Assembly: GCA_946402315.1 (NCBI GenBank)
Contig: CAMIWC010000005.1
Location: forward strand, 854-64,853
DNA from: an uncultured Clostridium sp.
Lineage (GTDB): Bacteria; Bacillota_I; Bacilli_A; RF39; UBA660
Length of the DNA stretch: 64,000 bases
Direction of reading: 5' to 3'
The position numbers and the translations under genes were made by a program. Positions 5,923-42,321 of this stretch are shown one piece after another (the first letter of the stretch is position 1; each line of letters starts with the position of its first letter). The notes below the pieces were generated by a model that was not told the origin of the DNA, made no database searches, and saw nothing but the letters and a program-made list of their open reading frames with translations.

Positions 5923-8900
5923 TAATTTGTACCTCCCTTTAACTCTTTAATTTTGTTATAGATTCTAACATAATCCAAGAAGTTGATTATATCGTCACCA
6001 TTCATATCAGCAGCTAATAAATATTCATCTACCAGCAAGGTCTTGTTTAATTCAGGATTATTTACTTTTTTAATGTGATTATATACATATACATAATCTA
6101 AGTAATTTATTTTTCCATCTCCAGTAGTATCACCTAAGAATGCTATATGATAATCAAATGTTTTTGTACCATTTATTTTTACTTTTATAATATCTCCTGT
6201 TTTTAAAGTATCAGTTGTTACTAATTGATTATTCTTATTATAATGTTTAATTTCAGTAGATGTTGAATATGTAGTAATTTTATTGCTTATTGATTCAAAA
6301 CTATTATCTTGTACTACTAAAGTATTTTCTTTTAATGAAATTGATGAATCAAATTGAGCAATACCATATATCTTAACTTTATTACTTCCAATTAAATCTT
6401 GGTATCCTGATTTAGTAATTTTGTAGTTTACTACATATTCACCAACATCTTTAAATATTGGATTAGTATTTAAATCATAATTTGTATTGCCTACAGAATA
6501 TCTAATAGTGTAGTTTTCTACATCAACATTAATACTTAAACCATGATTATTACCATCATAAATTGTTTCAAAATCACTTGTACTATTTGTAATAGTACCA
6601 TACTCTTCCCATATAGCATATAATGTAACAATTTGATTGTTCTCATTTGTTAAGTTGTTAACAGAAGCTTTATTAGCATAACTTGTTCCAGTTCCATCAG
6701 ATTTTGTATTCCATTCCTTAAACCTCATATTTGGTTTTGTAAACGTATTTTCTGGCAATATAAATGCTTGATCATATGTTAAATTCGAATTGTTCATGCT
6801 TCCAGAACCACCATTTGAATCATATTTTATTTGATATGTTATTGGGGTCCATATTGCATGTAATGTAATATTACTTGTTATAGAAATCGGATCTTCGTCA
6901 GCATATGAAGTACTAGTTCCATATAATGATCTGTTCCATTCTTTAAATAAATAACCATTTCTAGTAAAGGTATTTTTTGGTAAATTAATAATTTCATTTT
7001 TAATAACTTCAATACTAGGCATTTCTCCTTCACCTTGATTAGCATCGAATGTTATTGTATATGTTTCTACTCTCCATTGTGCATATACTGTTATCTTATA
7101 TTGATTATCAAATGGTATGTCATCAAACACTATAGAGCCATTTGTAGAGAAACTAATTCCAGTTCCATTTGGATCAGTATTCCAACTATCTAAAATATAA
7201 TTTTCTTTTGAAAATCCTGCAGTTGAGAATATAACTGAACCATTATTTGGATAAGTCAAATCCCAATCCATTACATTATTTGAGTTTGACATTGTTCCAC
7301 CATTACCATTAAATGTTATTCTATAATTTATTGTATTCCATATAGCATATAGAGTTAGATCTTCACTAATTCCGCCTTCAATTAATTGTTCATCAGTATA
7401 TGAAGTACCAGTTCCATTTGCTTTTGTATTCCATTCTTTAAAGGTATGCCCTTTATAAGTAAATGTATTCTTATTTAAATTAAAATCTTGATTAATAATA
7501 ACTTCTTGTGTATTGGTTTCTGCATCAGGATTATTACTATTAAATGTAATTGTACTCATTTGTGTTATATTAACTTGAATATTATCTCTATATCCATCAT
7601 ATAAACTAGTTATATTAATTGTTGTTGTTCCTTCTTTTATAGGAGTAATAATTCCTGTTGAACTAATAGTTATATATTCATCATCATAAGTCCATTGAAT
7701 ATTTTTAGCGTTATCAGTATTTGGAACAATTAAATCATAAATATTCTTTGATCCTGATATTTTTAAATCAAAATCATCTATTGTTTCAGTAAAATCAAAG
7801 ATATTTACTAACGTATTAGGCATTGGGAATCTTTTTATGTTTTCAATAGTAGGTTTAGTCCAATAACTAGAATGATTAAAGTTGTTTGTATAATTTGAGT
7901 TTATAATATTTGATATCGTTATGAATGTATTATTATTTACATTTTCATAATCATTATTTTCAAGTATTCCTTTTACTTTACTATTAACATAAAAGACATT
8001 ATTAATAGTTATAGAGTTATTATGATGACCATAACCTACAGCATCACCAAATCTTGTATTTGATTGTGTTTTATAACTTCCTGCACTAATTATGTTGTAT
8101 ATAGATATTTGATTTAGATAACTTGCATTTCCAACTATTCCACCTATAGAACTATTTCCTGTAGATCCATTACCTTTTACTTTACTAAATGTTACAGAAT
8201 CACTAATTGTTACACTAAGAACTCTATTACTACTTTCAATGACACCTATTATACCACCTACAAAAGATGTATCTGTATCTCCAACAATTGTATTGGAATA
8301 TAAATTATACATATTACAATTTATTTCTTCAGTAACTCCATTTGTTGAATTAATACCTCCAATTATTCCTCCATTATAATATGTAGAAATAACTTTTCCT
8401 CCAACAACAGATATATTATATATTTCTAATCCATCAGTAACTGATACTTTTCCAGCTAATGCACCAGCATAATAATTACCATTAATATTAGCATCTTTAA
8501 TTATTAAATTCTTTATATAACTGTTTGTACCATATATAGTACCAAATAATCCAACAGGATCTTCACTTACACTTTTTGGTCTATTTATATATAATCCACT
8601 AATTACATGATTATTACCATCAAGACTACCATAGAAATCATCTATTGGTAACCATCCAGCACCAGAATTATAGAATAAACCAGCACTGTTAGTTGTATCA
8701 TATGATAAATCTATATCATTATTTAATTTATAATATTTACCATTAGTATTTTGATTTCTTAAATCGTTTAAATCAGATACAGTTTTAATTAAATAAGGAT
8801 TATCTTCTGTTCCAATTCCTGACATAACATTATTATGTTGTGTTAGATTCCATTCTAATTCATCATACTTATTATTGTTATAATAAACTTCAATTGTATA

Positions 8901-10859
8901 AGTACCTAATTCAACATCTTCACTGTTATATGATATTAAAGTATTAATATAATTAGAAACTGAGTAATTTCTAAATATATGGAATAAACTTGTTACATTT
9001 TCTTGATTTTGATTTAGTACTCTAAATGTTAAATTATCAGTTGCTGATAAATCTCTTGTAACTCCTGAAATAATAAAGACATTATTATCACTAAATGATA
9101 TTTGATGAGGTTCAGAAATACATTTATTATCATTTAAAGTACATTTAGTTAAGATTTTCTCATCAATTTTATTGATTCCTGTTAAAGCAATATATTTATC
9201 ATCATTAACATTAGTTGTATGAATAGATCCAAAATAATCATATCTTACATAATTACCATAAAAAGATAATTTGAATTGACTTGTTTCTTCATCAAAAACT
9301 ATATTTTTATCTGAAATATCTATTGTATACAATCCTGGTTGAGAATATGTTTGTGATGTTAATAATACCCCTCCTGCATTTGAAGAATAAGTATTATCTT
9401 TAATAATAATTTCATTAGTACTTGCTCTATATAAAACACTTACTTTTGTATTATATGCAGTAACAAAGAATTTAACCTTTTTAACAGTTTCTTTTGTATA
9501 TCCCTTAGTAAATGTATTGATTTGTTGTGAGGCTCTATAAGAATTATCATAATCAACTTCACTTACATCTGAGATACTACTATATGAACTCTTCATAGAG
9601 TTATAAGGCAAATAAATAAAAGTATTTACATTTCCCCAAGAGTTTTGAACTATCCATGCTCCATTTATAGTATGTAGAGTACCTTTAGTACAAGAATAAC
9701 TACTACCTACTTTTTTAGCATCAGTTATTTCAAATCCAGTTTTATCTAAACAAATATTATGAGTATAATTATCATCCCAACCAATAACTGATACAGCATG
9801 GTTTATACCATCACTTGGATTCCATCCAGAAGGTATATAATATATCATATTTTTACCATTAGCATTTAATGCACTTTCTGTTCCTGTTGGAGTATATTCT
9901 ACTGATAAGTTTGAATAAGCACCAACTCCAACATATAAAGATCCATTAGTAACAATTTGTTGTTTAATAAGATTTACTAATGCATCTACTTCTTCTTGAT
10001 CATCAGAAGATAATGAATTAAAGAATAATAATTCATTAACACTATATTCTGTATTATTGATATTTGTAATTTCGTATGGAGAAAGTTTAGAATTATAACT
10101 ATAGTCATATTTCCAATACTTATCACTTGTTATACTATGATTACTATTGTAATTAGTACCATCACTACAATTTCCATCACATAAAATAGGTGAAATACCA
10201 ATAGCTGTTGAATTAGCAAATCTTATCATATTTCCACCATCATTTAGATTTTCTCCAATGATAGAATCATCATTTATATATGGATTGCTTTCAATATCTA
10301 TTGCTTTTGTAGCATCAGTAGTAGCATAATCTATTTGCTTTTCAGAAAAAGTTAACATTTTAGTCTTATTACTCTTTATAGCAATATGACTTTCTAAAGA
10401 TGTTACAGATGAGAAAGCCCAACATATACCTTCTGATCCTTGATCATATATATTTGTGATATAACCGTCATCTCTTAAGTTATAATATGACAATGATACG
10501 TTTTCATTAGAATCACCTTGTTTAGCAAGATAATCATTTTTATATGAGTGATCTACTATATATTTTTCTGGTACATGTCCATATTCACTTTTCTTACCCC
10601 TTATTAAATACTTAACATAATCTGGGTTTAAGTATGGTTCCTCATCTTTCTTTTCAGTTAGATTAAGTTCACCATTTTCTTCATAGACATTTTTTACATA
10701 TTCTTGTGCTTCTGTTGGTAAATAAGCATAAGAATTCTTATAAAGAACAGTTGTTATTAATTGTTTACTATCATTTTTAGTTAGGAATCCTCCAGCTAAA
10801 ATGATTGAAACAATAGATACAACCAACAATAATAATTTAATCCTTTTATTCATATTCAC
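5922..10859 (-). CDS. Giant secreted papain-like (C1) cysteine protease with GLUG repeats, four Listeria-Bacteroides repeats and a C-terminal dockerin
   Basis: Signal/anchor at the N-terminus. Catalytic Cys motif QGSEGICWAFSS, His INHAVSVIGWD and NSWG. GLUG-like GLFGTIYG/AGALAGKV segments. Four repeats of the ...F.GW(N)T..DGTG..Y...LYA.W type. Confidence 0.85.
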   Translation of the reverse strand: MNMNKRIKLLLLVVSIVSIILAGGFLTKNDSKQLITTVLYKNSYAYLPTEAQEYVKNVYEENGELNLTEKKDEEPYLNPDYVKYLIRGKKSEYGHVPEKYIVDHSYKNDYLAKQGDSNENVSLSYYNLRDDGYITNIYDQGSEGICWAFSSVTSLESHIAIKSNKTKMLTFSEKQIDYATTDATKAIDIESNPYINDDSIIGENLNDGGNMIRFANSTAIGISPILCDGNCSDGTNYNSNHSITSDKYWKYDYSYNSKLSPYEITNINNTEYSVNELLFFNSLSSDDQEEVDALVNLIKQQIVTNGSLYVGVGAYSNLSVEYTPTGTESALNANGKNMIYYIPSGWNPSDGINHAVSVIGWDDNYTHNICLDKTGFEITDAKKVGSSYSCTKGTLHTINGAWIVQNSWGNVNTFIYLPYNSMKSSYSSISDVSEVDYDNSYRASQQINTFTKGYTKETVKKVKFFVTAYNTKVSVLYRASTNEIIIKDNTYSSNAGGVLLTSQTYSQPGLYTIDISDKNIVFDEETSQFKLSFYGNYVRYDYFGSIHTTNVNDDKYIALTGINKIDEKILTKCTLNDNKCISEPHQISFSDNNVFIISGVTRDLSATDNLTFRVLNQNQENVTSLFHIFRNYSVSNYINTLISYNSEDVELGTYTIEVYYNNNKYDELEWNLTQHNNVMSGIGTEDNPYLIKTVSDLNDLRNQNTNGKYYKLNNDIDLSYDTTNSAGLFYNSGAGWLPIDDFYGSLDGNNHVISGLYINRPKSVSEDPVGLFGTIYGTNSYIKNLIIKDANINGNYYAGALAGKVSVTDGLEIYNISVVGGKVISTYYNGGIIGGINSTNGVTEEINCNMYNLYSNTIVGDTDTSFVGGIIGVIESSNRVLSVTISDSVTFSKVKGNGSTGNSSIGGIVGNASYLNQISIYNIISAGSYKTQSNTRFGDAVGYGHHNNSITINNVFYVNSKVKGILENNDYENVNNNTFITISNIINSNYTNNFNHSSYWTKPTIENIKRFPMPNTLVNIFDFTETIDDFDLKISGSKNIYDLIVPNTDNAKNIQWTYDDEYITISSTGIITPIKEGTTTINITSLYDGYRDNIQVNITQMSTITFNSNNPDAETNTQEVIINQDFNLNKNTFTYKGHTFKEWNTKANGTGTSYTDEQLIEGGISEDLTLYAIWNTINYRITFNGNGGTMSNSNNVMDWDLTYPNNGSVIFSTAGFSKENYILDSWNTDPNGTGISFSTNGSIVFDDIPFDNQYKITVYAQWRVETYTITFDANQGEGEMPSIEVIKNEIINLPKNTFTRNGYLFKEWNRSLYGTSTSYADEDPISITSNITLHAIWTPITYQIKYDSNGGSGSMNNSNLTYDQAFILPENTFTKPNMRFKEWNTKSDGTGTSYANKASVNNLTNENNQIVTLYAIWEEYGTITNSTSDFETIYDGNNHGLSINVDVENYTIRYSVGNTNYDLNTNPIFKDVGEYVVNYKITKSGYQDLIGSNKVKIYGIAQFDSSISLKENTLVVQDNSFESISNKITTYSTSTEIKHYNKNNQLVTTDTLKTGDIIKVKINGTKTFDYHIAFLGDTTGDGKINYLDYVYVYNHIKKVNNPELNKTLLVDEYLLAADMNGDDIINFLDYVRIYNKIKELKGGTN
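5925..6137 (-). other. Type I dockerin module (two EF-hand-like loops) at the C-terminus of the protease
   Basis: GDTTGDGKINYLDYVYVYNHI ... ADMNGDDIINFLDYVRIYNKI, the duplicated calcium-binding segment typical of dockerins. Confidence 0.75.
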
Positions 10860-10923
10860 ACCTCTTATTATAATAATATCACTTTTATTGTATCTATTCT
10901 ATACTTTCACTTAATGATAATAA

Positions 10924-10944
10924 AAAAGACCTTAAAGGTCTTTT
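10924..10944 (-). terminator. Intrinsic terminator after the HD-GYP gene
   Basis: AAAAGACC-TTAAA-GGTCTTTT. On the minus strand the hairpin is followed by a T-run. Confidence 0.6.
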
Positions 10945-12581
10945 TATTTACTTATCTTTTCAAATTCAGGAAGAACTTTTCCTAAAGATTCTACTACTTT
11001 AGGATTAAATTTCTTACCACTTTCTGCTTTAATCTTATCATATACTTTATCTTCTTTTCTTAGAACTAAATCATTATATTCTATTATTACTGATAAGACT
11101 TGAGCTACTATTGGTATTTGATCTCCTGATAATCCTCCTGGATATCCAGTACCATCATATTGTTCTTCATGATATAAAATCATATCTTCAGCATAGTGAT
11201 TAAATATACGATCTATTTGATGATATAGAACACTATTAAATATTGAAATCCCAATTTGTGGATGGCTCTTTATTATTTGTAACTCTTCTTTAGTAAATTT
11301 AGTCTTATTTAAAATAGTTTTAGGAAGAGTAAATAATCCAATATTATAATATTTAGCAGCTTCTACTATCTTTTCTAATCTATTTTCATCTACTTTATAA
11401 TCTGGATAATCTTCTCCTAATTGTTTCATTAATACTTTCATATAAGCACATACTCTTTTAATAGTATAATCACAATCTAATAGATAAGATTTAACTAATA
11501 ATCTAAGTACATTTTTAATTTCTTCATGTTGGTTAATAACTATTTCATTTAATGAGTTATTAGCTTTATACAATTTAATAAGATTAGTCATTCTATGTTT
11601 AACTATATTTATATTAAATGGTTTTTCTAGTACATCGGCAATTGGATACATATAAGCTTTTTCTCTTTTTTCATGTTCATCACCAGAAATAATTACAACT
11701 GGAAGTCTATTAATTAGATTCTTACTATTCATATAGTCTAATACTTGGAATCCATCTACTCCAGGCATGTTTAAATCTAGGAACAATCCAATTATCTTAT
11801 ACTTTTTATCAATTGTCTTACTATCATAATTCTTTTCTAATAAATCTATTACTTCTTGTCCTCCATCACATACAAGTATCTTATATGAATTTTGGAATGT
11901 TCTTTGAAGAATGTTTCTAGTTATTGCATCATCATCTACTATAATAATTGCTTTTTCTCCTTCATTAACATTAGTAATAAGTTCTTGACTCATTCTTTCC
12001 CCTATTTCAGGAAATTCACCAGTTAATTCTCCAATTGCACCACTCATATATTCTGTAATGCTTTTAATTTCTGGATTATGAGAAGTACAGTTTATATTTA
12101 TAATTCTATTTAATTGTTGTAAGGTATCACATACACGATCAAATATTAATTTTTCTTTCTTTTCTAAATCTTCTTCTTTCTTAGATTTATCTTCTATAGA
12201 ATAATCATCGTCCATAGTTTCAATTAATAAAAGAACTACTTTTCTATTTTCTTTATTAGTGATTACTTTAGCGATATTAGTATACCATTTATAATTATCT
12301 TCTTTTCCTTCACGATATTTATATCTAGTTTCTTGAGTAGGAGTTCCTTCAATGGTATTAATATTTAAATTATCTATATATCCTTTAATATCATCAGGAT
12401 GTACTAAATCAGATAAATCACTATAAAAACTAGTAAACGCCATTGTATTTATACAATCTAATTTACCATCTTTATAGCTATACTCTGATATTAAATCTTT
12501 TAAAGTATCTACTATATATATTTTATAAAAAATATTAGGAATACTATTTATGATAGAATCTAAATAACTATTATCGTTCAT
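10944..12581 (-). CDS. PAS-like / receiver / HD-GYP-domain response regulator with a degenerate HD motif
   Basis: PAS-like N-terminus (VHPDD). REC with DDD pocket, LDLNMPG acceptor and EKPF Lys. C-terminal HEEQYDGTGYPGGL is a GYP motif, but the HD dyad position reads YYNIGL. Confidence 0.8.
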   Translation of the reverse strand: MNDNSYLDSIINSIPNIFYKIYIVDTLKDLISEYSYKDGKLDCINTMAFTSFYSDLSDLVHPDDIKGYIDNLNINTIEGTPTQETRYKYREGKEDNYKWYTNIAKVITNKENRKVVLLLIETMDDDYSIEDKSKKEEDLEKKEKLIFDRVCDTLQQLNRIININCTSHNPEIKSITEYMSGAIGELTGEFPEIGERMSQELITNVNEGEKAIIIVDDDAITRNILQRTFQNSYKILVCDGGQEVIDLLEKNYDSKTIDKKYKIIGLFLDLNMPGVDGFQVLDYMNSKNLINRLPVVIISGDEHEKREKAYMYPIADVLEKPFNINIVKHRMTNLIKLYKANNSLNEIVINQHEEIKNVLRLLVKSYLLDCDYTIKRVCAYMKVLMKQLGEDYPDYKVDENRLEKIVEAAKYYNIGLFTLPKTILNKTKFTKEELQIIKSHPQIGISIFNSVLYHQIDRIFNHYAEDMILYHEEQYDGTGYPGGLSGDQIPIVAQVLSVIIEYNDLVLRKEDKVYDKIKAESGKKFNPKVVESLGKVLPEFEKISK

Positions 12582-12639
12582 GTAACCAACTCCTATTTTC
12601 TTAATTATAACACAATCAATAAAAAAAAGACTATATAGT

Positions 12640-13023
12640 CTATTTTATTTCAGATATACTTATAGTCTTTTCAACTATCTTTCTTACATTATCGATAGTA
12701 AATGGTTTCTTTAAAACATCTATGATAGGATATTCAAATGCTTTAGCAATATTATCCATATCATCTTCTCCAGTAATTATAGATACAGGAACTGATTTAA
12801 ATAAGTTTCTTGTTTTTAAATATTCAAGTACAGCGAATCCATTTACTTTAGGCATATTTAAATCTAGTAACATTCCAGCTACTTCTGTTAGATTATTATT
12901 TTCTATATAGTTAATTGCTTCTTCTCCATTAATAGCACCAACTACATTATATTCTCCTTCAAAAGCTTTTCTAGCTACATTAAGAATAATACTAGAATCA
13001 TCTGCGACTATAATTGTTTTCAT
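12640..13023 (-). CDS. Single-domain response regulator (CheY-like receiver)
   Basis: IIVADDSS..., LLDLNMPKVNG and KKPF. All receiver signature residues are present. Confidence 0.9.
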   Translation of the reverse strand: MKTIIVADDSSIILNVARKAFEGEYNVVGAINGEEAINYIENNNLTEVAGMLLDLNMPKVNGFAVLEYLKTRNLFKSVPVSIITGEDDMDNIAKAFEYPIIDVLKKPFTIDNVRKIVEKTISISEIK

Positions 13024-13024
13024 G

Positions 13025-13384
13025 TTAAACCTCCAAATATTCTTTTATTATATTTATAACCCTTGTATATTCTGCGATATAAGAATCAAAATTTGTATTT
13101 ATAAAGTTTAAATCTGCTGATTTACCAGCCATTTCATGGTTATAAGATATATCAGCAAAAAACATTATACCTAAATATTTACAATCACTTTTTATAGCGT
13201 GGGCTAAAATCCCGTAATTCTCTGTATCATTGGCATTTTTATAATTAGTTAAATTAGTTAGTCTTTCATTATAACAATTATAAAAATCAGTCATTGTTTC
13301 ATTATAGAAGTCCATATCTCCTAATAATTCTAAGCCATGATCTACATCAATATTATTACTTTTTAAAAAATCAACTGTTTTCAT
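13025..13384 (-). CDS. Histidine phosphotransfer (Hpt) domain protein
   Basis: 119-aa helical protein with HAIKSDCKYLG (HxxKG-type Hpt motif). There is a 1-nt gap to the receiver gene. Confidence 0.7.
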   Translation of the reverse strand: MKTVDFLKSNNIDVDHGLELLGDMDFYNETMTDFYNCYNERLTNLTNYKNANDTENYGILAHAIKSDCKYLGIMFFADISYNHEMAGKSADLNFINTNFDSYIAEYTRVINIIKEYLEV

Positions 13385-13474
13385 TATAACCCTCCTATTA
13401 TCATTTTATCATAATAATATAAATAGTTATTTAAAAACAGTTGAGATTGACATTATTATTACATTTATTGAGAA

Positions 13475-14776
13475 TTAACTCTCATCTTTATTTTTAAATT
13501 GTAATATTATTGGAGTACCCTCCAATTCAAAATTCTCCCTTAATTTATTCTCTAAATATCTTTCATATGAAAAGTGTACTAATTTTTTATTATTTACATG
13601 AAAAGTAAATTTAGGAGGTTTAGTTCCTGATTGATTAGTAAAGAATATTTTTAATCTTTTACCCTTATATGAAGGAGGAATATTTAATTGATAAGCATCC
13701 ATAATAACATCATTTAAGACACTAGTTTTAATTTCTCTTTTAATATTTTCTCCTACACGTACTACTTCAGGCATAATCATATGTACTCTCTTTTTAGTTA
13801 AAGCACTACAGAATACTACAGGACAATATGTAATAAACTGAAATTCATTACGTACTAATTGTAAGAATTCATTAGTATTCATATTAGCTTTATCCCATTT
13901 ATTAACTACAATGATTAATCCTTTTCCTTTTTCAAGAACATATCCTGCAATATGTTTATCATGTTCAATAATACCTTCTTCAGCATTAATTACAAGTAAA
14001 CAAATATCGCTTCTATCTATTGCTTCCATACTACGTAGTAAAGAATACTTTTCAATTGATTCATATACTTTACCTTTTTTACGCATACCAGCAGTATCTA
14101 TTACAACATATTCTTCTCCATTATATTTCATAACAGTATCTACTGCATCTCTAGTTGTTCCTGAAACATCACTAACGATTACACGTTCTTCATTTAAAAG
14201 AGCATTGATCAAACTACTTTTACCTACATTAGGACGCCCTACTACAGAGAACTTAAGTCTTGTATCAGTATCTGGTTCTTGTTCCTTAAAATCTTTTGTA
14301 ATAGATTCCATAAGTTCATAGAATCCACTGCCAGACTCACCACTAACTGGAATATATTCATCAAAACCTAATTCATAGAAATCATATTCATGATCTAAGA
14401 AACTTTTAGAATCAGTCTTATTAATAACTACAATAACTCTCTTATTTGATTTTCTTAACATATCACGTACTTCTATATCGTTTGGAGTTATTCCTTCTTT
14501 ACCATCAACAACAAATAAGACTATATCTGCTTCATCTATAGCTAGTTCAGCTTGTACTCTTATTTCATCATTAAATAATTCTTTAGATACATCTATACCA
14601 CCAGTATCTATTACATTAAAATGATAATTATTAAAAGTACCTTCTCCATAGATTCTATCTCTAGTAACTCCTGGAGTATCTTCTATTATAGCCATACGAG
14701 AACCTACTATTCTATTAAAGATAGTACTCTTACCTACATTAGGTCTACCTACTAAAGCTACTATTGGTAATTTCAT
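13475..14776 (-). CDS. der: Ribosome-associated GTPase Der (EngA)
   Basis: Two G domains (GRPNVGKST twice, DTGG/DTAG, NKTD/NKWD) plus a KH-like C-terminus. Confidence 0.95.
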   Translation of the reverse strand: MKLPIVALVGRPNVGKSTIFNRIVGSRMAIIEDTPGVTRDRIYGEGTFNNYHFNVIDTGGIDVSKELFNDEIRVQAELAIDEADIVLFVVDGKEGITPNDIEVRDMLRKSNKRVIVVINKTDSKSFLDHEYDFYELGFDEYIPVSGESGSGFYELMESITKDFKEQEPDTDTRLKFSVVGRPNVGKSSLINALLNEERVIVSDVSGTTRDAVDTVMKYNGEEYVVIDTAGMRKKGKVYESIEKYSLLRSMEAIDRSDICLLVINAEEGIIEHDKHIAGYVLEKGKGLIIVVNKWDKANMNTNEFLQLVRNEFQFITYCPVVFCSALTKKRVHMIMPEVVRVGENIKREIKTSVLNDVIMDAYQLNIPPSYKGKRLKIFFTNQSGTKPPKFTFHVNNKKLVHFSYERYLENKLRENFELEGTPIILQFKNKDES

Positions 14777-14802
14777 AAGTTCACCTCCTTTATATAAAAA
14801 GA

Positions 14803-15396
14803 CTAGATAACGTCTACAGACAAATTATCTATCTTTGTTAATATCTCATCTCTTCCTTGCTTAGTTACACTTGAAAATAATACTATATCATCTCCAACCA
14901 CTAAATTTAAAGTATCAGTTAATTGTTTATATGTTTTATCTTTCTTAGATGTTGGTACTTTATCTACTTTAGTCGCAACTATAGTAACAGGAATATTATA
15001 ATATTTTAAGAAATTATACATAAGTAAATCAGCTTCAGTTGGTTTATGACGAAAATCTACTAATAAGAATACTCTTTTTAATTGTTGTCTATTCTTAATA
15101 TATTCTTCAATCATAAGTCCAAACTTTTGTTGTTTCTTTTTATCTACTAAAGCATATCCATATCCCGGAACATCTACTAAGTAGAATGTATCGTTTACTA
15201 CATAAAAGTTTAATGTTTGAGTCTTTCCTGGACGAGAAGAAATACGAGCTAAGTTTTTACGATTAACTAAAGTATTAACAAAGCTACTCTTTCCAACATT
15301 ACTTCTACCTACCATTAAAAATTCTGGTAAATAATCTTCTGGATATTGACTATATCTTACTGCGGTAACAGCAAGATTAACACTATTTATCTTCAT
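14803..15396 (-). CDS. engB: Ribosome biogenesis GTPase EngB/YsxC
   Basis: GRSNVGKSSFVN, DVPGYGY and TKVDK. The N-terminus resembles YsxC. Confidence 0.9.
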   Translation of the reverse strand: MKINSVNLAVTAVRYSQYPEDYLPEFLMVGRSNVGKSSFVNTLVNRKNLARISSRPGKTQTLNFYVVNDTFYLVDVPGYGYALVDKKKQQKFGLMIEEYIKNRQQLKRVFLLVDFRHKPTEADLLMYNFLKYYNIPVTIVATKVDKVPTSKKDKTYKQLTDTLNLVVGDDIVLFSSVTKQGRDEILTKIDNLSVDVI

Positions 15397-31715: not shown

Positions 31716-31795
31716 ACTACCACCATTATAATTATACAAAAAATACACTTATTTTCCAATTTATTTAAGAAATCTTTTTATATTTTATTATATTT

Positions 31796-31804
31796 TGATA
31801 TAAT
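31796..31804 (+). promoter_or_regulatory. Extended -10 promoter (TGATATAAT) for the four-gene AAA+ operon
   Basis: TG-A-TATAAT lies 22 nt upstream of the SD-preceded ATG at 31827. Confidence 0.5.
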
Positions 31805-31826
31805 TAATATGATAGAGGGTGAAAAG

Positions 31827-33557
31827 ATGGCTAGTAATGAGGCGTTGGTACTTAGTGCCGCTAATTTGGAAATCATTGAAAAAAATCTAGGCAGTCTTGC
31901 TAATAACGTTGGTACAGTTAATGCTAACGTAGAACACGTTGACTCTAAAGTTAATAAAGTTACTAACAGTGTTAAAACAATAGAAGACGAAATTAAAAAC
32001 TTTATGGTAGAAATCCGAGGAACTACCATTGTTTCTAATGCCAAACAATCTATTACTATGGATCAAGATGAAATAAATAAACAATATGGTCACTACGACA
32101 GTGTTAGAAGAAAAGTAAATGGAATTTTCCAAGCAGCTGATATAAATTCAGTTAGAAAATCAACTATTGAAAATATAAGTGAACAAGTAATAATAGATAC
32201 ACCTAACTATTGGCTTGCTCCTGCACTAGTAGCAATTTGTGCTTGGTTTAATAACAACAAAGATTTAGCTAATCGTGCTTTAAAAGAAGCAATGACTAGA
32301 GATGATGAAAAAACAAGTTTATTGTTCTGTCTTATTCATTTAAGAGCAGGAAGACGAGATACATCTCTTCGTTGGTTAAGAAGATATCTAGATATGCAAG
32401 ATCCTACTAAAATGGAAAATAAGATCATTACTATTCTAGATGCAATTACTAATGGAACATTTGATATAGAAGCTAGAACTATGTGTCTAGATAAAATAAA
32501 TAAATGGATGACTGAACTAGAATCTCAACCAGGATATAGGGATACTCAAGTAGATAGATGGACTACTTTCTTAAATAGTTTTGTTAAGAATGAAGAAGAA
32601 TCTTTCTTCTATATCAAGAACTATACTAATCAACATGATCAAGTTATAAAAATATTAGATGTTACTAAATCAGAAAAGAATATTCTTGATGAATTAAGAA
32701 ATATTATTAAAGAAGATAATGGTCCTAAAATATCTAGAGAAGCTGAAATAGATAAAATAATTAATATGTTAGTATTTAACTATGAAAATGATGAATTAGA
32801 ACTACGTAAAGATATAGCTAAAAACAAACTTATTGTTGAGGAAAATGGAAATGTTACTAAAGCATTGGAAAGATTTAAAGAAACAGAATTTGCTTATCTT
32901 AAATCTATTGATTTCTATTCTCAATTAAGTAATGTTGTTCTAGAAAATAAATTTATTAAACCTACAGTTAATACTAGAAAGATGGCTATGGCCTTATCCA
33001 AGAACTTTATCTTAGAAGCTTATAATAAAAATATTAATAATAATGTTCAAAATGAAAATTTAAATATAGAAATTCATATAGGTACATGGAACAACAATAC
33101 AATAGATGGATCTAATGAAAAAGAATTAGTAGCTGATCTATATAAACATATAGATACTGAAACAGAAACTGAAATCTATGGAAAGAGATTATTTGATACT
33201 AAGATGATGCTTATTACTATAATTGCTGTTATTCTAGCAGTAATAATAAGTATATCAATGAAACCAATAGTTGGATTAGTTGTTATCGCAGGTGCTATTA
33301 TTTGTGATGCTTATATGTTCTTTGTTAATTATTCTGAAAGAGATAGTAAGATTAAGAAAAGAGAAGCTAGAAAAACTAATGAAAGAGCTATTCTACTTAA
33401 TACTATTGCTGAAATTGTAGATTTTAAATTCTTATATAGAGATGGTAAAAAATATCAAAATGAAATAATAGGATTTATTAATTCATTAGATTATAGAAAT
33501 TATGTAAAACTAGAAAATAATTCTAGAAATATAATGGTAGGTGATAGAAATGGATAA
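31827..33557 (+). CDS. Coiled-coil / helical-repeat protein with a C-terminal two-TM hairpin (unknown family)
   Basis: Start at MASNEAL (SD GAGGGTG). N-terminal heptad-like segment LEIIEKNLGSLANNVGTVNANVEHVDSKVNKVTNSVKTIEDEIKNF. W/R-rich helical region (YWLAPALVAICAWF...LRWLRRYL). Two adjacent hydrophobic helices, MMLITIIAVILAVIISI and IVGLVVIAGAIICDAYMFFV. Confidence 0.7.
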   Translation: MASNEALVLSAANLEIIEKNLGSLANNVGTVNANVEHVDSKVNKVTNSVKTIEDEIKNFMVEIRGTTIVSNAKQSITMDQDEINKQYGHYDSVRRKVNGIFQAADINSVRKSTIENISEQVIIDTPNYWLAPALVAICAWFNNNKDLANRALKEAMTRDDEKTSLLFCLIHLRAGRRDTSLRWLRRYLDMQDPTKMENKIITILDAITNGTFDIEARTMCLDKINKWMTELESQPGYRDTQVDRWTTFLNSFVKNEEESFFYIKNYTNQHDQVIKILDVTKSEKNILDELRNIIKEDNGPKISREAEIDKIINMLVFNYENDELELRKDIAKNKLIVEENGNVTKALERFKETEFAYLKSIDFYSQLSNVVLENKFIKPTVNTRKMAMALSKNFILEAYNKNINNNVQNENLNIEIHIGTWNNNTIDGSNEKELVADLYKHIDTETETEIYGKRLFDTKMMLITIIAVILAVIISISMKPIVGLVVIAGAIICDAYMFFVNYSERDSKIKKREARKTNERAILLNTIAEIVDFKFLYRDGKKYQNEIIGFINSLDYRNYVKLENNSRNIMVGDRNG

Positions 33558-33726
33558 TAACTTAGATTTTTTAGAACCTAAAACTAATCTATTTAAAGAA
33601 GTAGATCAAGAAAGAAGAGAAAAAGAAAAAGTAATTGATCCTAATTCAGAAGAATTTATAAATGGACTTCCTGATTGGGATTTAGTACCTCCATATGAAG
33701 GTGTAAGGAGGGTAAGTAGACAATGA
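33550..33726 (+). CDS. Small acidic protein (58 aa) with a C-terminal LPDWDLVPPYEG motif
   Basis: SD AGGTGA sits 5 nt before the ATG. The start overlaps the upstream stop (ATGGATAA) and the stop overlaps the next start (ATGA). Confidence 0.55.
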   Translation: MDNNLDFLEPKTNLFKEVDQERREKEKVIDPNSEEFINGLPDWDLVPPYEGVRRVSRQ

Positions 33727-34154
33727 CATATTATGAATGGATCAGTTATATAGAAAATTTAAAACATAATGTTGTTACTGATGAAATAATTAATCAAATT
33801 AATGGTGCTAATATTACTTATACTGGTGATATAAGAGTTAGATTCTTAAATCATATCGTAGATGTAATTAATTATAGATTAAATGAATCATTAGATAATT
33901 TCTATATAAAACTAAATACTATATCTCAAGATAGAGATAACTTATTATTAGAAATAAATTATTTAAAAAATGAAATGGTTATTGCTAAGAAATTAGCTTC
34001 TATTAAACATTTCGATGATAATACTAGAAAAGCATTACTAGATAATATATATAAACTAGGTGCTGATATGAATGAACAAATAAAAGAAGGATTTGCTAAT
34101 GTTAATGATCAGGGAATACTTATGATTATTAATAATTTAGATTTAAATAGTTAG
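33723..34154 (+). CDS. 143-aa all-helical protein (unknown family)
   Basis: ATGA overlap with the preceding ORF. The sequence reads as predominantly helical. No recognizable motif. Confidence 0.6.
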   Translation: MTYYEWISYIENLKHNVVTDEIINQINGANITYTGDIRVRFLNHIVDVINYRLNESLDNFYIKLNTISQDRDNLLLEINYLKNEMVIAKKLASIKHFDDNTRKALLDNIYKLGADMNEQIKEGFANVNDQGILMIINNLDLNS

Positions 34155-34163
34155 GAGGATATT

Positions 34164-35774
34164 ATGAATTATAATGAAACTAAAGAAACAATAATGAATT
34201 ATATAGTTGCTAGAATTCCTTTTATAGGAATAAATACTATTGAAAAAGGTAGAACTTTATCTTTACTAAGAGAAATAAGTAAAGAAACAAATACCAATAT
34301 GAAAGTTCATAGTATGTCTAATGGTTTTACTAACTTAGTAAGTGGAGAAGTATATAATAATGATAAGTTATTAATGGGTGCATTAGATTTTATAGCTAAA
34401 GAGCTTCAAACTAGTGAAAATCAAATCTATGTACTTAGTGATGTATCTGATTTAGATACTGAAAATATTACTTCAAGATATCTTGCTGATTTAGCAAATC
34501 TTGCTGAAGAAAAGTCTTCTGTTATTATTGTAATTACTGCTAATCCTATATGGGTTCAATTACAAAGACAAGGTATGATGGTAGACTTTGAACTTCCTGA
34601 TGAAGAAGAAATATTTAATTTAGTAGTAGAAAGTATTAGACCATATCAAAATCAAATAACTATTGAATGGGATAAAAACGATGTTATGGAAGTAGCAAAC
34701 ATTCTATTAGGATTAAGTTCAGTAGAAATTAAAAATGTAATAGCTACTCTAATAGCTGGTGGATCATTATTAAAAGATGATTTAGTACAATTAAAATTTG
34801 CTAAAGATAGTATGTTCTCAGATATTAATGGACTAGAGAAGATTACAGTAGAAGAAGACTTAGCCTTTGGAGGACTTAAAAATCTTAAAGAATGGTTAGA
34901 TGAAAAAGCAAAATTACTTAATCCAGAAAAAAGAGAACAAATGAAACAAAGAGGTATTAAACCTCCAAGAGGAATACTTTTAATGGGAGTTCCTGGATGT
35001 GGAAAGAGTTTATCATCTAAAGCAATTGCTCAACGTTGGCAAAGGCCATTATATAGATTAGACTTTGCTACTATTCAAGGTAGATATGTAGGACAAAGTG
35101 AACAACAATTAAAAGAAGCATTTGATACTGCAGAACATGTATCTCCATGTATCCTATGGATCGATGAGATTGAAAAAGGATTAGCTGGAGATAATGATTC
35201 TTCTGGAGTTACTCAAAGATTAATTGGACAATTCTTATTCTGGTTACAAGAATGTAAAAAAGATGTATTTGTAGTAGCTACTGCCAATAACGTTGATAAA
35301 CTACCACCAGAATTACTAAGAAAAGGAAGATTTGATGAATTATTCTTTATCGATTTACCAACAAGTAACGAAAGAAAAGAAATAATAAATCTATACTTAA
35401 ATAAGTACTTTGAAAAAACAGAGAATACTGAAATAATTAATCAATTACTTCCACTAACAGAAAACTATAGTGGTTCTGATATTGAAGCAGTACTAAGAGA
35501 TTTAGCTTATAACTGTATTGCTGAAAATATTGAAATAACTCAACAAATGGTAATAGATGCTTTTAAGAACTCTGTTTCAATGTATAATACTAATAAAGAA
35601 AAAGTTGAAAAGATTAGAAACTGGGCTAAAGATAGAACAATTAATGCTTCAGCTGAAGAAAGTAAACCAGTTGAAACTGCACCAGTACAACAACCAGTAC
35701 AACCTACTTATACACCACCAGTAACACCTAATCCAGTACCTCCAACAGGAAGTACAACACCAACTACATTTTAG
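34164..35774 (+). CDS. Classic-clade AAA+ ATPase with a degenerate N-terminal AAA-like half and a Pro/Thr/Gln-rich tail
   Basis: SD AGGAGG. D2 has Walker A GVPGCGKS, Walker B ILWIDEIEK and SRH-like TANNVDKLPPELLRKGRFD. The N-terminal half has an AAA-like layout but EKGRT replaces the GK[ST] P-loop. The tail is PVETAPVQQPVQPTYTPPVTPNPVPPTG. Confidence 0.85.
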   Translation: MNYNETKETIMNYIVARIPFIGINTIEKGRTLSLLREISKETNTNMKVHSMSNGFTNLVSGEVYNNDKLLMGALDFIAKELQTSENQIYVLSDVSDLDTENITSRYLADLANLAEEKSSVIIVITANPIWVQLQRQGMMVDFELPDEEEIFNLVVESIRPYQNQITIEWDKNDVMEVANILLGLSSVEIKNVIATLIAGGSLLKDDLVQLKFAKDSMFSDINGLEKITVEEDLAFGGLKNLKEWLDEKAKLLNPEKREQMKQRGIKPPRGILLMGVPGCGKSLSSKAIAQRWQRPLYRLDFATIQGRYVGQSEQQLKEAFDTAEHVSPCILWIDEIEKGLAGDNDSSGVTQRLIGQFLFWLQECKKDVFVVATANNVDKLPPELLRKGRFDELFFIDLPTSNERKEIINLYLNKYFEKTENTEIINQLLPLTENYSGSDIEAVLRDLAYNCIAENIEITQQMVIDAFKNSVSMYNTNKEKVEKIRNWAKDRTINASAEESKPVETAPVQQPVQPTYTPPVTPNPVPPTGSTTPTTF

Positions 35775-35781
35775 TTAATAA

Positions 35782-35805
35782 AAAAGATGCCAAACGGCAT
35801 CTTTT
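35782..35805. terminator. Bidirectional intrinsic terminator
   Basis: AAAAGATGCC-AAAC-GGCATCTTTT between convergent genes. Confidence 0.65.
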
Positions 35806-37407: not shown

Positions 37408-37941
37408 CTAGTCTTCTCTTGCTTTTCTAATTATAATAATAAGTCCAATTATAACAATAATTGCAGATACACCGATAATTAAATCTGTTGTCTTCTTATC
37501 TTTTTCTTTTTCATCATGAACCCAATTGTTTTCTTTTATTACTTTATCAACAATATTAGCTCTTTCAGTAGTATCTTTTTCATATTCTTCTGTTATAGCT
37601 TGAATAATTAATGCAGGATCTTCACTTGGAGCAAATCCAGAGAATGTTTCTTCTCCAATTATCATAAATGGAACTCCACTTACTTGTATACCTAAATATT
37701 CTCCAGTTAAGCTTAATAGTTCAGCATTCTTTTCATCTTCCCAAACTTCATACTTAACTAAATCAAATTTATCTCCATATTCATCTTCAATAGTACTAAA
37801 CCACTCTAGTAATTCTTGGCAATGTGGACAAGTAGATCCATGAAATAAATAAACATTAACAGGTGCTTTGGTTTGAGCAAATGCAGTAGTTGGTACAACT
37901 AACATCAAAGCAACGAATAATATGCAAAATAATTTTTTCAT
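37408..37941 (-). CDS. Exported thioredoxin-fold protein with a CPHC active site and a C-terminal TM anchor
   Basis: Signal peptide ending AFAQ, STCPHCQELLEW, and a C-terminal hydrophobic helix plus RKARED. Start moved to MKKLF (SD GGAGG). Confidence 0.7.
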   Translation of the reverse strand: MKKLFCILFVALMLVVPTTAFAQTKAPVNVYLFHGSTCPHCQELLEWFSTIEDEYGDKFDLVKYEVWEDEKNAELLSLTGEYLGIQVSGVPFMIIGEETFSGFAPSEDPALIIQAITEEYEKDTTERANIVDKVIKENNWVHDEKEKDKKTTDLIIGVSAIIVIIGLIIIIRKARED

Positions 37942-38031
37942 GATAAACCTCCTAAGGCATATTATAACACAATTCAAAAATAAAGTATATTTTTTTATTT
38001 CATCAAAAAAAGAGAGAAATCTCTCTTTATT

Positions 38032-38670
38032 TTAAGATATATAAATAGTCTTTTTACCTATAACTATAATAACTATAAAAATAGCAGCACCTACTACAAG
38101 TCTAAAATATGGATTATTATAAATTGGTTCTTTCTCTTCTTCTTTTTTACTTGTTTGTTGGATTTGTTCATCTTCTTTACTATAATCATCTGTTATAGGA
38201 TCATCTGAATCATCTTGAGTTAGTATTCCATCTCCTGGTGAATCATGAGTCCATCCTGTTTGAGTAATTACTTCATCAACTATATTTACTCTTAAACCAG
38301 GATCTTTTTCATATTCTTGTTTGATAACTTTAATAATTATTTCAGGATCTTCTTCAGGAGAGAATCCAGTAAAGTAACCATTTCCTACTAACATAAATGG
38401 TACTCCACTAATATCTAAATCAGTATAAGAAGCAACATATGATAATAAAATAGAATTGCTTTCATCATACCAAACTTCATATTTAATTAATTCATACATA
38501 TCTCCATAATCTGATTCTATAGAACTAAACCATTCTAATAATTCATGACAATGTGGACATGTTTCACCATAGAATAAATAGATTTTTACAGGATCCTTTT
38601 TTTGAGCATAAGCACTAGTTGGTAATAATAATACCAATCCAAAAATTAAAACTAATAATACTTTTTTCAT
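38032..38670 (-). CDS. Exported thioredoxin-fold protein with a CPHC active site and a C-terminal TM anchor (paralog)
   Basis: About 60% identical by eye to the neighbour over the Trx fold (ETCPHCHELLEW). Acidic linker, then a C-terminal TM. Confidence 0.7.
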   Translation of the reverse strand: MKKVLLVLIFGLVLLLPTSAYAQKKDPVKIYLFYGETCPHCHELLEWFSSIESDYGDMYELIKYEVWYDESNSILLSYVASYTDLDISGVPFMLVGNGYFTGFSPEEDPEIIIKVIKQEYEKDPGLRVNIVDEVITQTGWTHDSPGDGILTQDDSDDPITDDYSKEDEQIQQTSKKEEEKEPIYNNPYFRLVVGAAIFIVIIVIGKKTIYIS

Positions 38671-41691: not shown

Positions 41692-42321
41692 ATGAATAAC
41701 AATTTTATATCTAAAGTATATAAATGGCTAGCAATTGGTCTATTAATTACTTTTGGATGTGGATTTTTCTTATCTGTAAATACAGATCTATTTATGAGTA
41801 TTATTGAGGCATATGGAGTATTTGTAGCTATAGAAATAGTATTAGGTTTAGTAATGATATTTGCACTACATAAATTAAGTGAAACAGTAGTCAAAACTAT
41901 GTACTTAATCTATACTGCTATAACAGGAATAACTTTTGGATCAATATTCATTGTATATGAAGTTAGTTCAATTATGTGGGTATTCTTAGCAACAGCAGTT
42001 ATCTTTGGAGTATTAGGATTCATTGGTAAAAATACAAAGAAGAATCTAAATGGATTTGGTACATTCTTATTTGTAGCACTACTAGCATCATTAATACTAT
42101 TAATAATTAATGCGTTTGTAGGAAGTGCCGTTCTTGATTTAGGACTAGCAATTGCAATACTATTAATATTCTGTGGATACTTAGTTATAGATATGTGGCG
42201 TATCTCTAAAATGAATCCAGATACAGAAGAAAAATATGCTGTTTACTGGGCATTCCAATTATACTTAGATATCATTAATATCATAATTAAATTATTACAA
42301 TTATTTGGAAAAAGAAATTAA
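41692..42321 (+). CDS. Bax inhibitor-1/YccA family membrane protein
   Basis: Seven-TM ~209-aa protein with the typical family layout. SD GGAGGA. Confidence 0.7.
   Translation: MNNNFISKVYKWLAIGLLITFGCGFFLSVNTDLFMSIIEAYGVFVAIEIVLGLVMIFALHKLSETVVKTMYLIYTAITGITFGSIFIVYEVSSIMWVFLATAVIFGVLGFIGKNTKKNLNGFGTFLFVALLASLILLIINAFVGSAVLDLGLAIAILLIFCGYLVIDMWRISKMNPDTEEKYAVYWAFQLYLDIINIIIKLLQLFGKRN

Follow-up and report, generated by a model that had tools for sequence, protein, structure and literature searches.

Organization of the g1-g4 operon

The 64-kb stretch of contig CAMIWC010000005.1 analysed here (an uncultured Clostridium sp.; hereafter the window, meaning the whole 64,000 nucleotides) contains a plus-strand cluster of four open reading frames (ORFs), g1 to g4, that encode a putative membrane-anchored helical protein, two small proteins and a AAA+ ATPase (Table 1). 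Comparison with relatives from several phyla indicates that this cluster is a real, widely conserved and uncharacterised cassette, a motor of known kind with new dedicated partners; literature searches for the g1-g4 cassette found no description of it.

The genes are closely packed: g1 and g2 overlap by 8 nt (ATGGATAA), g2 and g3 overlap by 4 nt (ATGA), and g3 is separated from g4 by 9 nt. Shine-Dalgarno-like sequences precede all four start codons (GAGGGTG for g1, GGTAGGTGA for g2, AAGGAGGG for g3 and AGGAGG for g4). The initial annotation of the window, a reading of the bare sequence, holds for the four plus-strand ORFs, their coordinates, overlaps, gap and ribosome-binding sites. An alternative in-frame ATG at position 31809 is less likely to be the start of g1, because the N-termini of its homologs begin at the MASN position that corresponds to the ATG at position 31827. 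A programmed frameshift joining g1 to g2 was considered and rejected; since the overlap contains no obvious slippery sequence, and g2 has its own start codon and Shine-Dalgarno-like sequence, the overlap is read as ordinary translational coupling.

The extended -10 promoter that had been assigned to the operon is present as a motif, the best plus-strand site of the intergenic gap between fhs and g1 (10 of 12 positions matched, plus the TG), but it does not stand out from background: 24 promoter-like matches were found in this AT-rich region versus 28.8 expected from shuffled sequence, and because such matches are no commoner than chance the promoter is plausible only. The terminator, which closes both the operon and the convergent gene downstream of g4, is a strong hairpin with a folding energy of -14.4 kcal/mol (z = -5.84) that none of 200 shuffled sequences equalled, and it is potentially bidirectional, as had been suggested, because an A-run and a T-run flank the stem. 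A consensus terminator scanner made no call at this hairpin, possibly because A-T pairing of the flanks lengthens the stem and consumes the T tail.

The operon lies between fhs on the opposite strand (PF01268, E = 6.5e-230), with gatCAB also upstream on that strand, and a downstream block of predicted exported or membrane-anchored proteins that have N-terminal hydrophobic leaders and weak domain matches, which is the setting originally described for it. Its GC content (0.24-0.31) is the same as that of its flanks, with no compositional anomaly. Between positions 24000 and 44000 of the window, the operon is the largest plus-strand block of a region that is otherwise nearly all minus-strand, the sole other plus-strand gene being at 41692-42321, and both GC skew and AT skew change sign exactly across 32-35 kb while GC content stays constant.

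Table 1. Features of the g1-g4 operon in the window, and examples of associated genes at related loci (given as locus:coordinates).
Feature	Position	Strand	Description
g1	31827-33557	+	576-aa ORF
g2	33550-33726	+	58-aa ORF
g3	33723-34154	+	143-aa ORF
g4	34164-35774	+	536-aa ORF
Candidate sigma-70 promoter, extended -10	31777-31804	+	TTTATA-16-TGATATAAT (TTTATA-16 nt-TG-n-TATAAT)
g1 residues 11-106	31857-32144	+	Predicted single helix of ~96 residues, coiled-coil-like arm (AlphaFold secondary structure)
g1 residues 126-193	32202-32405	+	Most conserved block, PxYWLAPAL...AW...RDDEKTSL...R...W(L)xRYLxxQ
g1 residues 458-500	33198-33326	+	Predicted transmembrane hairpin with 3-residue outer loop (hydropathy and AlphaFold helices)
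g2 residues 37-58	33658-33723	+	Putative docking-type motif at the extreme C-terminus, INGLPDWDLVPPYEGVRRVSRQ (tail alignment)
g4 N-half, residues 1-235	34164-34868	+	No P-loop; 64% mean column identity across phyla
g4 C-half	34869-35663	+	Active-type classic-clade AAA+ module (PF00004 and AAA_lid_3)
g4 Walker A	34986-35009	+	GVPGCGKS, invariant in 23 diverse homologs
g4 pore loop	35085-35093	+	YVG; Tyr and Gly invariant, Val near-invariant (23 homologs)
g4 C-terminal tail	35676-35771	+	Pro/Thr/Gln-rich, lineage-specific; length and sequence not conserved
Hairpin terminator	35781-35805		11-bp stem, GATGCC/GGCATC core, A-run and T-run flanks
g5 examples	L049:12090-12572; L083:1106-1576; L084:8489-8974
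Zinc-ribbon neighbour examples	L040:6982-7968, 13521-14894; L076:12836-14413; L034:12530-13522; L070:12267-13577

Conservation of the cassette across phyla

Searches with g1 retrieved 290 relatives among the scored candidates, none of them functionally named (the few that carry a name are each called 'hypothetical protein'), and a HMMER scan with the g1 profile matched 826 representative clusters (50% identity) at E <= 1e-3, 424 of them at E <= 1e-30 and nearly all at full length. Scanning one genome per species yielded 80 loci. In these loci and in annotated records, genes were detected by tblastn and iterated profile searches: 85 g1 ORFs were found, accompanied by g2 in 79 cases, g3 in 79 and g4 in 77, and the order g1-g2-g3-g4 is constant in 77 independent loci. 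Nearly all missing partner genes are accounted for by loci that end too early, and one locus (L073) contains a genuine orphan g1. At that locus (L073:7959-15400), the orphan gene is followed by genes for a 686-aa protein with a signal-peptide-like start and a 1175-aa protein, both unrelated to the cassette.

The closest relatives (43-85% identity in g1) are from uncultured gut Bacilli, 'Tenericutes' and Mollicutes. At about 30% identity in g1, the cassette is found in Streptococcus oralis, S. mitis, S. sanguinis, Enterococcus caccae, Clostridium rhizosphaerae and many Lachnospiraceae and Oscillospiraceae; in metagenome-assembled genomes (MAGs) labelled Veillonella and Mitsuokella (Negativicutes); in Bifidobacterium leontopitheci and Fusobacterium; and in the Proteobacteria Komagataeibacter, Comamonas, Variovorax and Achromobacter. 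The recurrence of this arrangement in 77 loci of several phyla is far beyond chance. Because the four genes are co-conserved, because some relatives encode g1 and g2 as one fusion protein, and because starts and stops overlap, they are considered to be one functional unit. The description of the operon as self-contained with four genes is accurate only for the clade of the window; in the wider family a fifth gene is present, and further genes are often co-transcribed.

The g4 ATPase

To judge from its motifs, g4 is a classic-clade AAA+ translocase. Its C-terminal half matches PF00004 (109.1 bits, versus a cut-off of 21.2; E = 2.8e-31) and AAA_lid_3, and its best matches in the PDB are the D2 modules of VAT (5vc7), Cdc48 and p97 (E = 5.7e-65). 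Among 23 diverse homologs, the Walker A motif, the Walker B motif WIDE (ILWIDEIEK in the window) and the sensor-1 motif TAN are invariant, as are R151, G153, R154, F155 and D156 of the Arg-finger segment LLRxGRFD (RKGRFD in the window), and the AAA half as a whole has 73% mean column identity across phyla. With these elements and the YVG pore loop in place, g4 lacks none of the motifs expected of an active threading ATPase, and the AAA+ module can be called intact, as first annotated; its ring is presumably hexameric like those of its relatives. Pfam and NCBIfam reveal the AAA module only, in agreement with the earlier observation that no protease or nuclease is attached.

Assignment of g4 to a named family is contradicted by curated equivalog models, which it matches far below their cut-offs: 130.2 versus 802.65 bits for CDC48 (TIGR01243), 95.4 versus 600 for FtsH (TIGR01241), 90.3 versus 650 for CdvC (NF041006) and 90.7 versus 510 for IteA (NF042959). 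The alignment with the CDC48 model is confined to the D2-like module, and that with the FtsH model to the AAA module. By curated thresholds or architectures, g4 is not a member of the Cdc48, FtsH, CdvC/Vps4 or IetA families, and its matches in PADLOC are to the generic IetA and TRIP13 AAA models only.

The N-terminal half of g4 is probably a nucleotide-dead AAA-like fold, to go by its alignment with the C-terminal half. In that alignment (hhalign), the two halves are in register at the sensor-1 strand, the Arg-finger segment, the LP motif and the lid. The N-half has no P-loop, and the initial annotation of an AAA-shaped half, there with a degenerate P-loop, is moderately supported at most: the alignment has a probability of only 19.5% (E = 0.0012), residues 1-235 match nothing in Pfam or NCBIfam, and a profile of the N-half against PDB sequences finds nothing even at E <= 10. 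This half is a candidate platform for the binding of partners. The Pro/Thr/Gln-rich tail that was noted at the other end of g4 is present but not conserved among relatives; within the clade of the window, such tails vary from 0 to 45 residues.

The partner proteins g1, g2 and g3

An AlphaFold model of g1, built from 111 diverse sequences, is all-helical (predicted local distance difference test, pLDDT, 91; predicted template-modelling score, pTM, 0.79). The N-terminal arm is followed by a helical domain (residues 111-410), a small beta-hairpin (414-425) and two hydrophobic helices (458-476 and 480-553), of which the second is a long helix that reaches residue 553. Kyte-Doolittle hydropathy exceeds 1.6 solely across residues 454-503, and the resulting transmembrane hairpin is flanked on both sides by K/R-rich sequences (GKRLFDTK and SERDSKIKKREARK); because there is one such hairpin with K/R-rich flanks, the bulk of g1 and both of its termini are predicted to be cytoplasmic (N-in/C-in). 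Model and hydropathy thus agree with the long N-terminal helix, helical domain and two adjacent transmembrane helices near the C-terminus that were first recognised by eye, and support the description of g1 as a membrane-tethered helical protein. The most conserved block of g1, residues 126-193, has invariant or near-invariant columns in the 111-sequence alignment (P126, Y128, W129, L130, W140, K162, L165, R176, W183 and Q191 among them) and is a candidate surface for binding of a partner or peptide.

In the window, g2 consists only of an acidic linker, which may be disordered, and a conserved C-terminal peptide. Among relatives, g2 ranges from 43 to 394 aa, and 37 of 80 g2 proteins, many of them from Firmicutes, have a CxxC...CxxC zinc ribbon (PF13240) at the N-terminus and, after it, a linker of low complexity. 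The motif [A/I/V]xGLPxW[D/S][L/I/V]xPPxxxVRR[K/V]x[R/K], in which P, W and P are invariant, stands at the end of 69 of 72 unique g2 C-termini and resembles a docking motif, for which a partner within the cassette may be supposed. Homologs of g1 that are 611-620 aa long (P0043, L011, L017) run directly into a g2-like tail ending PPKWNLEPPYENVRTVIR; such fusions were found at L011:7995-9842 and L017:7989-9836, and in P0039, P0041-P0043, P0047, P0049, P0052, P0058, P0059, P0062 and P0079. Fusion into a single protein in several lineages is direct evidence that g2 works with g1. Since the two are fused in one sub-lineage, and are overlapping genes in the window and most relatives, evolution has kept both the split and the fused forms. 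Sequence comparison therefore suggests that g2 is in effect a detachable C-terminal tail of g1 bearing a docking peptide, which the initial annotation missed.

The AlphaFold model of g3 is a helical bundle (pLDDT 91.6, pTM 0.84), in keeping with the all-helical protein that had been predicted, and homologs of g3 were detected beside g1 down to about 15% identity, including those of Betaproteobacteria. It is a candidate adaptor.

None of the three partner proteins could be placed by eye when the operon was first described, nor was any placed in a known family by profile searches or by structure prediction with Foldseek. Searches of Pfam, NCBIfam, PADLOC and PHROGs with the window and Streptococcus versions of g1, g2 and g3 found nothing but the zinc ribbon of the long forms of g2, and no PADLOC-DB v2.0.0 family was matched at E <= 1. 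Against PDB sequences, the g1 profile found coiled-coil noise only, including in the N-terminal arm, and the g3 profile found nothing meaningful. Foldseek, run with the undivided g1 model against the PDB and BFVD and with the g3 model against the PDB, gave nothing at E <= 1e-3; the best match of g3 was at E = 0.44. The weak top matches of g1 are the ClyA-family alpha-pore-formers AhlB, SmhB and MakA (E 0.06-0.4, TM-score 0.12-0.32, probability <= 0.85), TPR solenoids and one designed protein; no sequence-profile match links g1 to ClyA-type toxins. Weak matches of g1 to phrog_14230 and of g3 to TPR_PEP5_VPS11 were treated as noise.

A fifth gene and zinc-ribbon membrane proteins in relatives

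Two features of the wider family escaped the initial annotation: a fifth gene, and an association with zinc-ribbon membrane proteins. The fifth gene, g5, encodes a protein of about 160-180 aa at all 50 loci of the distant clade, just after g4 and sometimes separated from it by other genes, or, in Proteobacteria, just before g1. Cys93, His102, His113 and Glu140 of g5 are invariant (S. oralis L049 numbering, alignment A8), Asp144 and Cys145 are near-invariant, and the C-terminus has the sequence GGYxFIEVYxDCCRAVSxxGxVSVI. No known family was found for g5 in family libraries or by profile comparison with PDB sequences; a match to the homoserine dehydrogenase model NF004912 (22.9 bits, versus a cut-off of 373) was treated as noise. 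A C-terminal extension of g4, G[KRQL]PIG...KTRKVLV, is encoded at 50 of the 50 loci that have g5 and at none of the 27 that lack it, a perfect co-occurrence that points to a link between the tail of g4 and g5.

Flanking genes for proteins that start with a zinc ribbon, 29 in total, were identified at 17 of 36 loci from diverse Firmicutes and Actinobacteria. Every one of the 29 lies on the strand of the operon and encodes at least one transmembrane segment after the ribbon, and 20 of them are inside the operon or no more than 300 nt from it. The domains at the C-termini of these proteins are of envelope-related types: YARHG, SH3_3, TcaA-like, beta-lactamase-like and M48/HtpX-type peptidase domains. 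Peptidoglycan binding has been hypothesised for the YARHG domain (PMC3355149). These bitopic membrane proteins are candidate clients or sensors of the cassette.

The window contains a reduced core of the cassette, with no zinc ribbon in g2, no g5 and no g4 extension. No g5 was found at the 27-28 loci of its clade or anywhere in the 64 kb of the window, the g4 tails of this clade lack the G[KRQL]PIG...KTRKVLV extension, and the window has no ORF with an N-terminal zinc ribbon; the clade as a whole has only a few such ORFs, which lie on the strand opposite to the operon and at a distance of more than 4 kb.

A proposed membrane-tethered remodelling complex

We tentatively propose that the four genes encode a membrane-tethered AAA+ complex that remodels or extracts proteins, with a favoured role in the homeostasis of membrane proteins and the envelope, a proposal that we rate as quite possible though short of probable. 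According to this proposal, g1 would be a cytoplasmic helical scaffold held at the membrane by its C-proximal transmembrane hairpin, a topology that is predicted, and would recruit the ring of g4, itself soluble, to the membrane by way of the g2 peptide and of g3 as adaptor; g2 and g3 are probably made together, because the start codon of g3 overlaps the stop codon of g2. The P-loop-less half of g4 would be the docking platform for these partners, and ATP-driven threading by g4 would unfold, extract or disassemble clients associated with the membrane. In the full version of the cassette, that of Clostridia, Streptococcus and Proteobacteria, the zinc-ribbon bitopic membrane proteins would be the clients or sensors, coupled through the zinc ribbon of g2 itself, and g5 would be bound to the tail of g4. 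In the reduced version of the window, the likeliest client would be the g1-g2 assembly itself.

Direct observation covers the linkage of the genes, the fusion of g1 with g2, and the motifs with their degree of conservation; folds and membrane topology are predicted, and the binding and threading steps, and above all the role, are ones that we infer. The role is the least certain step, homeostasis being somewhat favoured over phage defence.

Mobile elements, defence and alternative roles

The alternative that survives best, doubtful as it appears to us, is that the cassette is an abortive-infection or conflict module in which g1 would be a latent membrane-damaging effector, its long helical arms and hydrophobic hairpin resembling those of ClyA-type alpha-pore-formers. 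The ATPase, with g2 and g3, would keep g1 disassembled or else activate it in response to a phage or mobile element; in relatives, sensing would fall to the zinc-ribbon proteins, and g5 would act as a processing enzyme.

Links to mobile elements speak for such a module. The S. oralis satellite prophage Javan368 (14 kb; L082, MK448457.1) has the cassette (9674-14257) at its accessory end, opposite the integrase, and other streptococci share with Javan368 only the 5.4-kb cassette (93-97% nucleotide identity), which has a patchy distribution among genomes of S. mitis and S. oralis. At several of these loci (L048, L051 and L062, ~7268-7774), a 3' fragment of the Javan368 integrase gene, about 225-500 nt long, directly precedes the cassette, suggesting decayed satellites that kept their cargo. 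The cassette is also found on 26-kb and 39-kb plasmids of Komagataeibacter, where an IS3 element adjoins it in the 26-kb record that was inspected, and on a Comamonas megaplasmid, and its spread across phyla implies horizontal transfer.

Some neighbouring genes point the same way. In five Clostridial loci (L030:4348-7971, L031:4320-7975, L037:4351-7956, L041:4354-7968 and L069:4390-7981), a co-directional gene pair directly upstream of g1 encodes a zinc-ribbon protein of about 300 aa with three transmembrane segments and a HerA/DUF87-like ATPase of about 890 aa that matches the HerA models of PADLOC; this pair may represent a neighbouring defence system, or it may extend the cassette. Two Lachnospiraceae loci have a papain-fold glutamine-deamidase toxin-domain gene (Gln_amidase, PF15644) embedded between g4 and g5 (L037:12465-13652 and L041:12458-13648), and isolated neighbours match AbiL, AriA, viperin or PDC-S01 models. 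The g4 AAA module matches the PADLOC model of IetA (E = 8.6e-34), and pore-formers are among the top, non-significant Foldseek matches of g1.

Other findings speak against a defence role. Most neighbours of the cassette are not defence genes. The partners g1-g3 match no PADLOC model, the match of g4 to IetA reflects a generic AAA module that falls far short of the curated threshold, and the AAA half of g4 is highly conserved across phyla. The pore-former matches of g1 have E >= 0.06 and low TM-scores. Pattern scans of 2.9 million viral contigs (with S. oralis g1 and with alignment A1) found no relative of g1, which is weak evidence because such scans depend on the pattern. In the clade of the window, moreover, the operon stays beside fhs while identity in g1 drops to about 45%, and its divergence parallels that of fhs and gatAB: identities in g1, g4 and fhs are 85%, 84% and 89% for L002, and 48%, 61% and 61% for L010. 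Comparison of these sequences shows long vertical inheritance of the operon at a fixed chromosomal site, and its composition is unremarkable. Three betaproteobacteria, Variovorax and Achromobacter among them, have the cassette in its five-gene form among icd, ssb/uvrA, minCDE and envelope-polysaccharide genes, and no mobile or defence genes were found near it in these three genomes.

Several points weigh against the homeostatic membrane complex proposed above. The links to satellites and plasmids and the patchy distribution argue for a conflict role, as do the HerA-like pair, the AbiL, AriA, viperin and PDC-S01 neighbours and the toxin-domain gene, and the weak likeness of the g1 model to pore-formers of the ClyA family would suit an effector better than a scaffold. 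All contacts proposed for the complex are conjectural, the AAA likeness of the g4 N-half is weak, and the client model is extrapolated from relatives because the window lacks the zinc ribbon, g5 and a zinc-ribbon membrane neighbour. Homeostasis is nevertheless favoured over defence on account of the stable place beside fhs, the flank-like GC content, the housekeeping setting in Betaproteobacteria and the lack of any PADLOC match for g1-g3.

A service to mobile elements (maintenance of a satellite or plasmid, superinfection exclusion or interference with a helper phage, chromosomal copies being domesticated remnants) is improbable. Besides the cassettes of Javan368 and the plasmids, it would account for full-length g4-like ATPases in Pseudomonas phages and mycobacteriophages, which match g4 with the N-half included (phrog_8638, E = 1.1e-95 over g4 residues 5-504; 26% identity over 90% of the protein by tblastn against Pseudomonas phage SM1). 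The phage ATPases stand alone, however, with no g1, g2, g3 or g5 homolog within several kb; g1 was found in just 1 of 50,697 phage records; and most copies of the cassette are chromosomal, in ordinary neighbourhoods. The ATPase of phage SM1 is gp026 (L090), encoded just downstream of the lysis genes, and that of mycobacteriophage Corndog is gp96 (L091).

The model offered with the initial annotation, a polymer of g1 and/or g3 resembling ESCRT-III or PspA and disassembled by a Vps4-like ATPase, is very improbable and is largely refuted at the level of folds. In its favour, g4 belongs to the same classic AAA clade as Vps4 and CdvC, both g1 and g3 are predicted to be all-helical, with g1 bound to the membrane, and the C-terminal peptide of g2 is formally analogous to the MIM motifs that recruit Vps4. 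On the other hand, neither g1 nor g3 matches PspA_IM30 or Snf7 in Pfam at E <= 1; no ESCRT-III, PspA, Vipp1, flotillin or dynamin structure is among the top 50 PDB matches of either model in Foldseek; g1 is a 576-aa integral protein with a hairpin anchor rather than a hairpin of ESCRT-III size (~220 aa); and g4, far below the CdvC cut-off, has no MIT domain but an N-half that looks AAA-like. Finally, chance adjacency of g1 and g4 with two spurious small ORFs between them, to which the 58-aa length of g2 and the lack of family assignments for g2 and g3 might lend some colour, has practically no probability and is refuted by the conservation data: at about 79 loci from different phyla, homologs of g2 and g3 occupy the space from g1 to g4, the motif of g2 hardly varies, g2 is joined to g1 in some genomes, and g3 is modelled with high confidence from a diverse alignment.

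Other genes of the window

Two tandem paralogs on the minus strand (37408-37977 and 38032-38670) encode proteins that start with a signal-like sequence, contain a thioredoxin-type CPHC motif and end in a hydrophobic anchor; weak matches to Thioredoxin_4 and Thioredoxin_7 were found for the first, and the pair are probably extracytoplasmic thiol-disulfide oxidoreductases. Also on the minus strand, a 1645-aa protein (5922-10859) combines a papain-family C1 peptidase domain with Listeria-Bacteroides repeats and has a type I dockerin at its C-terminus; such an architecture is unusual in an organism of low GC content with gut Bacilli MAGs as relatives.

Implications

Bacterial membrane-protein quality control is generally ascribed to FtsH-type proteases, and we know of no trans-recruited dislocase in the style of Cdc48 or Msp1 that has been described in bacteria. 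The cassette could be an unrecognised membrane machine of this sort, a Cdc48-like ring recruited in trans by g1, g2 and g3, or the same machine acting as an immune effector, although we regard this bolder reading as rather unlikely. By analogy with endoplasmic reticulum-associated degradation and Msp1, such a machine may extract or unfold bitopic membrane proteins by their cytosolic zinc-ribbon handles, with g5 as a coupled processing enzyme. The cassette could then explain the zinc ribbons that are common and unexplained at the N-termini of Firmicute membrane proteins; if it serves in defence instead, a phage satellite of streptococci would be carrying an immune mechanism of a new kind that acts on membranes.

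Four protein families that have no curated models (g1, g2, g3 and g5) would be defined by this cassette, at least two of them with confidently predicted folds that have no solved relatives. The C-terminal peptide of g2, the joint occurrence of g5 and the g4 tail, and the Cys/His set of g5 are testable features, and culturable hosts include S. oralis ATCC 9811, S. sanguinis, Enterococcus caccae ATCC BAA-1240, Variovorax and Achromobacter, as well as strains with the Komagataeibacter plasmids.

Comparison with known AAA+ systems

The C-terminal half of g4 resembles the D2 module of Cdc48, p97 and VAT in its Walker A and B motifs, YVG-type pore loop, Arg-finger region and AAA_lid_3, and g4 may plausibly share the two-tier layout, one of the tiers being less active. 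In contrast to these proteins, the first tier of g4 has no P-loop, no N domain is matched, the score is far below the CDC48 cut-off, and the operon partners g1-g3 are unrelated to cofactors of the Ufd1/Npl4 type.

FtsH (with HflKC) and Msp1/ATAD1 are classic-clade AAA+ rings that act at the membrane on membrane-protein clients. The AAA module of g4 is similar to that of FtsH (E = 3.5e-27), and M48/HtpX-type peptidases recur as neighbours of the cassette in relatives, but g4 has no transmembrane segment and no match to Peptidase_M41, so that any attachment to the membrane would be in trans via g1. With Vps4/CdvC and ESCRT-III, or with PspA/Vipp1, the cassette shares the general idea of a classic AAA+ ATPase acting on a membrane-bound helical partner that has a C-terminal recruiting peptide; it differs in that g1 and g3 are related to ESCRT-III and PspA neither by fold nor by sequence and g4 lacks the MIT three-helix bundle.

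Reportedly, Gao et al. in 2020 described IetAS as an anti-phage system of the AAA ATPase IetA and the serine protease IetS. Both IetAS and the g1-g4 cassette are small operons built around a classic AAA ATPase, and the PADLOC model of IetA matches residues 253-491 of g4; however, the cassette has no IetS-like protease, g4 has an additional 235-aa N-half, and g1-g3 have no counterpart in PADLOC. The standalone phage ATPases of phrog_8638 (SM1 gp026 and PaMx31) and Corndog gp96 match g4 over its full length, N-half included.

Ycf46 of cyanobacteria and plastids has a similar layout: in its roughly 500 aa, a classic AAA module follows a non-canonical N-half, and its gene shares a small operon with two others whose products are uncharacterised. 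The g4 cassette may conceivably be related to the Ycf46 operon. The three-gene Ycf46 operon (e.g. Synpcc7942_0416-0418) has been described as strongly stress-induced (bioRxiv 10.1101/2025.07.21.665879).

In working principle, the cassette appears by analogy to be most like FtsH-HflKC, Msp1 and Cdc48 with its cofactors or, alternatively, like IetAS and the TRIP13-HORMA pair of CBASS. It would differ from all of the latter in the recruitment of its ATPase in trans by three dedicated proteins that belong to no curated family and have no solved relative.

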